DNA of 64,000 nt from Minisyncoccota bacterium. GTDB taxonomy: Bacteria; Patescibacteriota; Minisyncoccia; UBA6257; HR35. Positions 62,026-64,000 of this stretch are shown here, piece by piece. Where the stretch lies: the NCBI GenBank assembly GCA_032249155.1, contig JAVVGJ010000001.1, positions 10,883 to 74,882 of the forward strand. Direction: 5' to 3'. The translations under genes and the position numbers were made by a program. The notes below the pieces were generated by a model. The model was given only the letters and a program-made list of their open reading frames with translations. It searched no databases and was not told where the DNA came from. Numbering within the stretch: position 1 is the first letter of the stretch; each line of letters starts with the position of its first letter.

Positions 62026-64000
62026 AGGCGAAAAGCTAAAATATTTTGCCTTATTTTTTTCCTTAGTTCTCTTTTTTCTTATCTTTTTTATTGGTGAAAA
62101 AAAACTAAAAGAAGAGCAAGAAATTTCTTTCGTTAACTTTTTAGACAAAGTTAAAAAAGGAGAAGTAAAAGAAATAAATATTGAGTCAGATTCAAATATT
62201 ATTTTTTTAACTAAAGATGGAAAAATTTTCAGAACTTCTAAAGATCCTAACTCAAGTCTTTGGGAGGTTTTTGAAAAAGAAAAAATACATAAAAACGATT
62301 ATTTGAATATTAAGATAAATAAAAAGCCAGAATTTTCTTTTGTACAGCTTTTACTTTCCTTTATTTTAAATGTTCTTCCTGTAGCTATTATTATTTGGTT
62401 TATATGGCAAATGTTTAAACAAACTCAAAAGGGAACATCACAAATTTTTAGTTTCGGAAAATCAGGCATTAAAGTTTATAATCCTGATGATCCAAATAAA
62501 GTTACCTTTAAAGATATTGCTGATTTAGAAGAAGCCAAACAAGAATTAATGGAAGTTGTTGAATTTTTGAAAAACCCAGATAAATTTTTAAAAATTGGCG
62601 CCAAGATTCCTAAGGGAGTTTTACTTGTGGGACCACCAGGAAGCGGTAAATGTGTAGTCGGTGATACTCTGGTTTTTACTAATAAAGGAATTATGGAAAT
62701 TCAAGAAATACCTAAATATTTTTATGTTGATAAATTTACAAATAAAGTTGAGGGTGCTTATTTGCCTACTTTGGATTTAGAAAATTTAGAAAAAGTGCAA
62801 GATAGAGCTATTTATTTTTATGAGCTTCCTGAGACCGAAACTATAAAAATCACTACTAAACAAGGATTTGAGCTCGAAGGAACTCCAGAACATCCAATAG
62901 TTGTTTTAGATAATGATGGGAAATTGATTTTCAAAACTTTACAAGATGTAGATGAGGGTGATATTGTTGCGATAAAGTTTAACACCCAGATTTTCGGTAA
63001 TTTAGAAGAAGTAACAGAAGAAGAAGCTTATATAATGGGAATTTTAACTGGTGATGAAAATTTATCTGCTGGCAGCAGACTTGAATTAACTACTGCTGAT
63101 AAAGAATTGGCTGAAATTTTTGTAAATTATTTCAAAGTTAACTACCCGCAATATAGCGTTTTTACAAGACCACAATATACCAGGAACAGAAACAAATCAA
63201 TCGTTTATGGAATTTCTTCTTGGCCAGCAAAGAAAAGATTTTTTGAAAAAGGGATGAGTTGTTTTATTTCTTATGACAAATATGTACCTACATCAATTAT
63301 GATGGGAAGTAAAAAAATAGTAGTATCATTTTTAAGAGGTCTTTTTGATAGCGATGGTTATGTAGAAAAAAATAGAGGGGGTGTTGGTCTTAGTTCTGTG
63401 AGTAAAAAACTTATTTATCAAGTTGCCATGCTTCTCTTAAATCTTGGCATTGTTCCCTCGATAAGAGTAAAACATAGAGTTGATGGCAGACATCTTAGAG
63501 ATGTTTATTCTTTAACTATAAGCGGAACGCATCTTTTAAAATTCGCTAAAGAAATAGGTTTTGCGCTTCCTCGAAAACAAAAAGAACTTGAAAATTATCT
63601 TTATACACGATGGAAAGGAAATACTAATGTTGATGTTTTTTATAATATTGGAGAGATAGTAAATACAGCTTGTAAAGAAATAAGTCAAAAGAGGTTAAGT
63701 AATAGCTGGTTAGCTTATATTACCGATAAGACTAGAGATAGAAACAGAATCTCTAGAAATACTTTGATAAGATTTATAGAGGAATTAGAATCAAAAAATG
63801 CCACAAGTGATGAATTTTACTATCTTAAAAAATTATTAGAAGCCGATCTCTATTTTGTTCCTATTGTTAAAAAAGAATATAGCAAAAACAAAGTTTATGA
63901 CTTTACAGTTGAAAAATCACATTCATTTATTTCTAACGGTTTCATTTCTCACAACACACTTTTAGCAAGAGCAACTGCGGCAGAAGCAGGTGTTCCATTT
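62018..64000 (+). CDS. ftsH: ATP-dependent zinc metalloprotease FtsH, intein-containing (3' end beyond window)
   Basis: Not in ORF track because it runs off the window. From ATG 62018: TM, periplasmic loop, TM, then [50 protein letters not shown] | intein | [15 protein letters not shown]. Confidence 0.9.
   Translation, partial: [661 protein letters not shown]
62651..63955 (+). mobile_element. intein (435 codons) with LAGLIDADG homing-endonuclease domain, inserted after GPPGSGK of FtsH
   Basis: Open frame throughout. Cys1 (CVVGDTLVF), block B GTPEHP, LAGLIDADG motifs [10 protein letters not shown] and [12 protein letters not shown], C-terminal [21 protein letters not shown], then Thr+1. Confidence 0.85.

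Follow-up and report, generated by a model that had tools for sequence, protein, structure and literature searches.

The stretch of DNA considered here, which we call the window, is 64,000 nt of contig JAVVGJ010000001.1 from a Minisyncoccota bacterium, and its far end carries the beginning of ftsH, the gene for the AAA+ protease FtsH, split within its Walker A motif by a complete intein. The ATG of ftsH falls within the last 8 nt of the S1-domain gene that lies upstream (60964-62025), and the part that precedes the intein, the N-extein, has an FtsH_ext domain (Pfam, 4e-9), a TIGR01241 match over residues 14-214 and two transmembrane helices, which hydropathy places at about residues 7-27 and 108-131. 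The window alone covers residues 1-226 of mature FtsH, and once the insert is taken out, the joined flanks can be aligned to the solved FtsH structures 7tdo and 7wi4 with no gap across the junction. Coordinates are collected in Table 1, in which L001 and L006-L009 are our labels for the contigs that were compared with the window.

Table 1. Features of the interrupted ftsH gene and of its relatives (positions are those of the window unless another contig is named; a slash marks an insertion point)
Feature	Position	Strand	Basis or content
ftsH N-extein, 211 residues	62018..62650	+	ATG start; ends at the Walker A Lys (GPPGSGK)
Complete intein, 435 residues, site a (GK/T of Walker A)	62651..63955	+	Class-1 residues and nested LAGLIDADG endonuclease
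N-terminal splicing (HINT) part, about residues 1-112	62651..62986	+	TIGR01445 over residues 1-85; all-beta E7-E109 in the model
Block A, Cys1	62651-62653	+	Cys in 106/106 aligned relatives
Block B, G-T78-P-E-H81-P	Thr78 62882-62884; His81 62891-62893	+	Thr/Ser in 195/213 and His in 210/213 relatives
LAGLIDADG endonuclease core, about residues 120-320	63008..63610	+	Pfam, model, Foldseek
Motif 1	63026-63061	+	Asp135 63053-63055, atypical Glu136 63056-63058; reads GILTGD-E-N
Block D, K210-Y-V-P213	Lys210 63278-63280	+	Lys in 200/222 and Pro in 224/227 relatives
Motif 2	63326-63364	+	LFDSD235, Asp235 63353-63355, then Gly236
Helical extension, about residues 325-398, four helices	63623..63844	+	Model secondary structure; alignable with the equivalent part of PI-PfuI
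C-terminal splicing part, about residues 399-435	63845..63955	+	Block F (Asp417, His424), block G FISHN; TIGR01443 over residues 414-435
ftsH C-extein start	63956..64000	+	Thr+1 (ACA 63956-63958), then FtsH sequence; gene exceeds the window
Second intein, 441 residues, site b	L001 13089-14411 (window-equivalent 64052-65374, 52 nt past the window end)	+	Pfam
ftsH of the window and L001			Site a intein, 435 residues; site b intein, 441 residues; site c empty
ftsH of L006 (JGI metagenome)			Site a intein; b empty; c empty
ftsH of L007 (Candidatus Paceibacter sp.)			Site a intein; b empty; c empty
ftsH of L008 (Patescibacteria bacterium CTOTU25730)	DAINRM010000003, 5001-7460		Site a empty; b mini-intein, 213 residues; c empty
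ftsH of L009 (Bacterium HR35), 1541 residues	BEIL01000003, 4998-9623		Site a empty; b full intein, 441 residues; c intein, 493 residues

The complete host gene

An earlier note on this DNA had claimed that the gene runs off the window and that removing the insert restores the FtsH P-loop, and both statements are borne out, the second by the gapless alignment just described and the first by L001, an 85-kb ENA contig that was reached via the protein encoded upstream of ftsH and is identical to the window over 60964-64000. The gene continues there for a further 822 codons, giving a full ftsH of 1483 codons with two inteins. With both of these removed the product is a protein of 607 residues that scores 758 bits against the TIGR01241 equivalog model (cut-off 600), an assignment that needs the continuation on the identical contig, and that has AAA (5e-44), AAA_lid_3 and Peptidase_M41 (6.5e-63) domains together with a Walker B motif, a second region of homology and a HEAGHA zinc site.

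The intein at the Walker A motif

The insert opens with a Cys (codon TGT) followed by VVGDTL and closes with His-Asn at 63950-63955. Its own frame contains no stop, whereas the other two forward frames contain 39 and 58, and at the local composition 435 open codons would arise by chance with a probability of about 3e-18. The Walker A Lys is residue -1 of the intein and the Walker A Thr is residue +1, that is, the first residue of the C-extein, and Thr likewise occupies this position in all FtsH relatives with an intein at site a. The earlier note had placed a 435-codon intein at exactly these coordinates, and translation agrees with it to the residue; Cys1, the TxxH block, the terminal His-Asn, Thr+1, the two LAGLIDADG motifs and the GK/T site that it listed are all present. 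The hidden Markov model search that it had suggested is just as clear, since intein and LAGLIDADG models are matched above their curated cut-offs. For the splicing parts the relevant figures are 1.9e-18 for Pfam Intein_splicing (67 bits against a cut-off of 35.8), 6e-12 for the N-terminal intein model TIGR01445 of NCBIfam and 1e-9 for its C-terminal counterpart TIGR01443 (38 bits against 15.6).

Residue conservation was counted, here and in Table 1, on related intein domains aligned from the best 150 representatives in a library of 1.84 billion proteins. Asp417 is kept in 197 of 199 of them, His434 in 191 of 195 and Asn435 in 194 of 194. An AlphaFold2 model of the intein, built on 24 homologues, reaches a mean predicted local distance difference test score of 91.8, and the insert has the sequence and structural features of a class-1 intein, namely Cys1, block B, blocks F and G, Thr+1, in-frame insertion and the Hedgehog/intein (HINT) fold. 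The same DNA is found in three independent assemblies (ENA ERZ27247211, ENA ERZ27249311 and Logan SRR10916988), and for this reason we reject an assembly error at the intein.

The position of the insert is by no means unusual. Among related inteins with an aligned N-terminus, 62 of 84 sit directly after GK, in hosts that include PhoH, MutS, UvrD, DnaB, a Clp-like AAA_2 protein, CobA, other AAA ATPases and a phage terminase, and this fits both the earlier description of the GK/T position as a hot spot and the main text of the survey by Novikova et al. (2016, PMC4760082), in which the P-loop is the best-known intein hot spot. Related inteins are also found at a Tyr/Thr site in GyrA, which is not a P-loop position, and the GyrA of other bacteria of the candidate phyla radiation (CPR) carries related inteins.

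The nested endonuclease

Between the two splicing parts lies a LAGLIDADG homing endonuclease, matched by Pfam LAGLIDADG_3 over residues 224-303 (4.4e-22, 78.6 bits against a cut-off of 22.5) and by Pfam Hom_end over residues 212-296 (7e-7, above its curated cut-off). Both LAGLIDADG helices end in a catalytic acidic residue (ILTGD135 and LFDSD235), and the secondary structure of the model over residues 123-320, in which the helices at 123-135 and 221-235 both lead into beta sheets, is that of the duplicated alpha-beta-beta-alpha-beta-beta-alpha fold. The helical extension that follows (63623..63844) is presumed to be a DNA-contact or linker region.

The Gly that typically, if not by strict definition, follows the catalytic acid in LAGLIDADG proteins is present in motif 2, and in motif 1 its place is taken by Glu136. 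The codon is GAA, for which a single G-to-A change from the Gly codon GGA suffices, and a read error can be dismissed because all three assemblies have it. The suggestion of the earlier note that the homing endonuclease is intact is therefore not certain: the two motifs, Asp135 and Asp235 are present, but motif 1 reads GDE against a near-invariant GDG. Some active LAGLIDADG enzymes tolerate a residue other than Gly at this point, I-SceI having Ala. Given Glu136, the present activity of the nuclease in this allele is uncertain, and it may be impaired.

A second intein and a third site

The second intein of the gene lies just beyond the window, at a position that we call site b. It has Ser1, a TGDH block B, two LAGLIDADG motifs and His-Asn followed by Ser+1, and it matches Pfam Intein_splicing (2e-13) and LAGLIDADG_3 (1e-11). 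The insertion is at FVEMFVGVGA/SRVRD, three residues past the FVG motif, which we take to be the pore-1 loop motif of FtsH (Phe228 and Gly230 in Escherichia coli FtsH). About 45 of its 64 database matches have FtsH-type domains or names, and these come from Patescibacteria, Firmicutes, Bacteroidetes, Omnitrophota, Planctomycetes (Gemmataceae), Actinobacteria, Gemmatimonadota and others; the intein is also distantly related to those of the archaeal RFC small subunit. The two inteins of the gene are both placed after the second membrane helix, within the AAA module on the cytoplasmic side.

Relatives were drawn from a scan of species-representative genomes and from contig look-ups, which gave four syntenic loci, each with the S1-domain gene upstream of ftsH. 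The earlier note had proposed a search for intein-free alleles in related genomes, and such alleles do exist, since the Walker A site is empty in both L008 and L009; in L008 the empty site reads TTATTAGTAGGTCCGCCTGGATCAGGTAAA/ACGCTTTTAGCTAGAGCAACTGCTGCAGAA, and its amino-acid flanks are identical to those in the window. In the same L008 gene the mini-intein at site b has an unrelated linker of about 60 residues in place of the endonuclease, and looks like a natural endonuclease-deletion derivative. L009 has a third intein, running from Cys1 to His-Asn and followed by Cys+1, with a LAGLIDADG endonuclease, at AKRNQP/CILFIDELDA, directly before Walker B. Three sites in ftsH can accordingly be named: a, the GK/T of Walker A; b, the GVGA/S of the pore loop; and c, the QP/CILFIDE before Walker B. 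Among the window, L006 and L008, the spliced FtsH proteins share 87-90% identity; L009 stands at 81-82% to these three and L007 at 63-65%. Within this clade of Patescibacteria ftsH is a multi-site arena for inteins, occupied in various combinations among FtsH proteins that are 80-90% identical.

Two further observations concern L006. Its empty pore-loop site reads GVGS/ARVRD instead of the usual GVGA/SRVRD, an exchange of Ala-Ser for Ser-Ala that leaves no Ser at +1 and alters the presumed target DNA; this allele may be resistant to, or incompatible with, the site-b intein. Its gene call (P0001, from JGI, 4901-7012) starts at a Met inside the intein, while the frame is open from 3884 and has 1042 codons.

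Divergence and probable mobility of the Walker A intein

Between the window and L006 the intein and the exteins show the same synonymous divergence (dS), about 0.8, and the ratio of nonsynonymous to synonymous divergence (dN/dS) is 0.115 for the intein and 0.08-0.10 for the exteins. For the endonuclease region it is 0.14, which implies that the nuclease region has been kept under constraint by purifying selection. In these two lineages the site-a intein has diverged in step with the gene that hosts it. Composition was considered as a sign of recent invasion and rejected, the GC content being equal to that of the host and the GC content at third codon positions (GC3) being 0.186 in the intein and 0.185 in the N-extein. 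No tracts of co-conversion can be made out near the insertion point, since synonymous sites are close to saturation.

Evidence of another kind comes from P0101, a 1494-residue FtsH precursor of another lineage, whose exteins are 55.7% identical to those of the window, whose site-b intein is 52.3% identical and whose site-a intein is 77.2% identical. An intein that is far more similar than its slowly evolving host is the expected signature of homing across lineages, and this argues for lateral transfer of the site-a intein. A more distant version (48-49% identity) occurs at the same site in an FtsH from a member of the Pyrinomonadaceae (Acidobacteria). The earlier suggestion of a potentially mobile element gains support both from the empty sites in relatives and from the incongruence between intein and exteins in P0101; this incongruence and the dN/dS of 0.14 also lend indirect support to cleavage of the intein-less allele.

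How the precursor might be processed

The splicing steps that we envisage are drawn from the conserved residues and the established chemistry of class-1 inteins. A precursor of 1483 residues would be translated and inserted into the membrane with its AAA module in the cytoplasm; both inteins being located in that module, splicing can follow membrane insertion and take place in the cytoplasm. Once the intein has folded, Cys1 would form a thioester with Lys-1 through an N-S acyl shift, and the hydroxyl of Thr+1 would then attack this thioester in a trans-esterification that leads to a branched intermediate. Cyclisation of Asn435 to a succinimide, with His434 assisting, would release the intein, and an O-N shift would create the native Lys-Thr bond and with it the P-loop GPPGSGK-T. 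Because the intein separates the Walker A Lys from the Walker A Thr, no P-loop is possible in the precursor, and ATP binding and every activity of FtsH would be expected only after both inteins have been spliced out; an active hexamer would need both reactions in each of its subunits. At the level of DNA, the endonuclease would drive homing into ftsH alleles that lack the intein.

Weighing the explanations

We think, with considerable confidence, that the insert is a class-1 bifunctional intein lodged between the Walker A Lys and Thr of FtsH, that it belongs to the clade of inteins found at the GK/T or GK/S position of P-loops, and that it probably spread by homing and now mostly diverges along with its host. 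A number of points do weigh against this. Splicing and DNA cleavage are both activities that we infer; a contig scan with the intein found no close relative in viral contigs that might have served as a vector; and equal dS and host-like GC3 indicate no recent invasion of this genome. Then there is Glu136, since 177 of 190 related domains have Gly after the Asp of motif 1 and not one has Glu, and GDG is the sequence in all 13 of the other FtsH site-a inteins examined, where the window has GDE. The absence of Glu from both sets, and a dS and GC3 that cannot be told apart from those of the host gene, are also what one would cite for an overlapping explanation that differs only in present nuclease activity, namely that the intein is competent to splice while its endonuclease is no longer active here, so that it is inherited vertically and is heading, late in the homing cycle, towards a mini-intein. 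Decay of this sort has taken place in this very gene, as the endonuclease-less site-b intein of L008 testifies. The constraint on the endonuclease region over the pair to L006 argues the other way, as do the retention of Asp135, Lys210, Asp235 and Gly236, the lack of frameshifts or deletions and the tolerance of some active enzymes for a residue other than Gly, and we regard the loss of activity as a serious possibility that falls short of an even chance. Taking Glu136 together with the host-like GC3, we would put an impaired nuclease in this copy at about one in three.

It is tempting to ask whether the intein, or the pair of them, has been kept as a post-translational switch in which splicing depends on temperature, redox state or extein folding and so gates FtsH. 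Precedents exist in the P-loop intein of Pyrococcus RadA (PMC4513877) and in the mycobacterial DnaB intein, a stress sensor (PMC6195587), and the P-loop position does make activity strictly dependent on splicing. The strong purifying selection across the whole intein might be read in the same sense, but one would expect it no less of a selfish element that sits in an essential gene; moreover, with site a empty in L008 and L009 and with intein sets that vary among alleles, the intein is dispensable, and the sequence has no hint of a sensor, for instance a Cys close to the junction with which Cys1 could pair. We consider such a switch improbable. Only marginally less doubtful, in our estimation, is the broader idea that excision of the one or two ATPase-core inteins is a rate-limiting or conditional step, whereby selfish elements would control the supply of active FtsH post-translationally; were it true, the protein so controlled might be the sole membrane AAA+ protease of these reduced genomes. 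As for the insert being non-functional, whether as an assembly chimera, a pseudogene or a Hint-like insertion that does not splice and inactivates ftsH, the metagenomic origin of the data is the one thing that speaks for it, and it has to contend with identical sequence in the three assemblies, an open frame of 1483 codons in DNA of 28% GC, the presence of every catalytic residue, an orthologous intein at this site in no fewer than 13 other FtsH sequences and a dN/dS of about 0.1. That explanation is effectively refuted, and a bifunctional class-1 intein remains the account that we prefer.

Novelty and significance

We found no description of FtsH as an intein host in the literature searched, which covered FtsH, HflB, metalloprotease, Patescibacteria and candidate phyla radiation. 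Of the 22 papers in which FtsH and intein both occur, none has a title that suggests an FtsH intein, and those on a jumbo phage, a chloroplast genome, a prasinovirus and the Methylococcus genome treat the two separately. FtsH is likewise absent from the main text and top-15 tables of the Novikova survey (PMC4760082), whose supplementary tables might hold an entry. The remark in the earlier note that FtsH is not among the classic intein hosts is therefore right as far as this literature goes; as regards sequences it needs correction, for at least 13 other FtsH sequences with a site-a intein are already in public collections, unrecognised. Their database names, like those of the site-b sequences, are mostly 'AAA family ATPase', 'hypothetical protein' or 'LAGLIDADG family homing endonuclease', and the entries are often partial; partial gene calls probably help to hide FtsH inteins. 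Precursors of 1000-1500 residues are often mis-called or truncated by gene finders, and in CPR annotations this conceals not only the inteins but also a core housekeeping gene.

The list of intein hosts gains in FtsH an AAA+ protease of protein quality control, which is not a replication or repair enzyme, and three insertion sites are now defined in its gene, each of which falls within a catalytic motif of the AAA module. Together the five alleles form a compact natural series of the homing cycle, comprising an empty site, a full intein, a mini-intein, double occupancy and one clear case of lateral transfer, from which one could estimate how fast uncultivated bacteria gain and lose inteins. 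The second intein outside the window, the presence and absence at three sites, and the incongruence of intein and exteins that documents lateral transfer all go beyond what the earlier note contained. In addition, an intein with Cys1 and Thr+1 from a mesophilic, AT-rich organism is a possible part for protein engineering.

Elsewhere in the window

Searching the window by tblastn with three inteins and with the spliced FtsH found neither a further intein nor a second ftsH in it. An Rfam scan of the window returned six tRNAs only, without any rRNA or intron context; three of the tRNAs, for Ser (TGA), Glu (CTC) and Leu (TAG), are tightly clustered at 53365-53614 on the minus strand, and the other three stand singly elsewhere. 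Also on the minus strand is a run of five small open reading frames (ORFs) of 121-216 residues at 53869-56196, three of which have weak T4SS_pilin Pfam matches on an identical public contig, and after this run come genes for a solute-binding protein and a methyltransferase. The gyrA gene (57900-60221, minus strand) is a single ORF of 773 residues without an intein. On L004, a near-identical contig from another sample, gyrA (6041-8362) is split into ORFs of 365 and 368 residues by a frameshift, an assembly error or a strain difference.

Comparison with known systems

When the whole model is compared with solved structures by Foldseek, it finds PI-PfuI (1dq3, E 5e-26), the VMA inteins of Thermococcus litoralis (Tli) and Pyrococcus horikoshii (Pho) with template modelling (TM) scores of up to 0.71, PI-TkoII and PI-SceI; the endonuclease part finds I-DmoI, I-Tsp061I and I-SceI, and the beta-rich part finds the RadA, GyrA, DnaB and RecA mini-inteins and Hedgehog. 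PI-PfuI, the RIR1-1 intein of Pyrococcus furiosus (PDB 1dq3), is the best solved match both by sequence (E 1e-17 over residues 37-431) and by fold, and like our intein it has a HINT domain split around an endonuclease with two LAGLIDADG motifs. The two differ in that PI-PfuI, at about 22% identity, is archaeal, resides in a ribonucleotide reductase and occupies a site that is not a P-loop; its motifs, moreover, read GDG and AEG, where those of the window intein read GDE and SDG. The top TM-score of 0.71 belongs to the Tli VMA intein (PDB 7qss; PMC8966425), which is associated with an endonuclease and has a P-loop ATPase as its host, in this case V-ATPase subunit A, and which is 20% identical to the window intein.

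Inteins at P-loops offer the closest parallels in position. By sequence, the Pyrococcus horikoshii RadA intein matches over block B (E 6e-6), and we presume that it lies at the Walker A GK/T with Thr+1 as nucleophile. Its chain of 168-174 residues (PDB 4e2t/4e2u) leaves no room for an endonuclease, and its host is a recombinase, for which conditional splicing has been shown; its location in the ATPase domain of RadA is on record (PMC4513877). The P-loop inteins of the RFC small subunit, MCM (site a) and DnaB (site b) follow the same insertion logic, GxxxxGK/T or GxxxxGK/S, according to the main text of the Novikova survey (PMC4760082), although their hosts are replication proteins, unlike FtsH. 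The resemblance extends to the sequences themselves, since NCBIfam RFC models align across the extein-intein junction of the window ftsH and P0031, a DnaB intein at GK/T, matches the window intein at 46% identity over 30% of the query only.

Closest to FtsH in the function of the host are archaeal LonB and chloroplast ClpP, both intein hosts in the main text of the same survey (PMC4760082). They belong to ATP-dependent protease systems, and LonB is also an AAA+ P-loop protein, but they represent other protein families in other domains of life. Set beside all of these, the mechanism and structure of the window intein are ordinary for a class-1 intein that carries an endonuclease, and what is new is the FtsH host and the sites of insertion within it.

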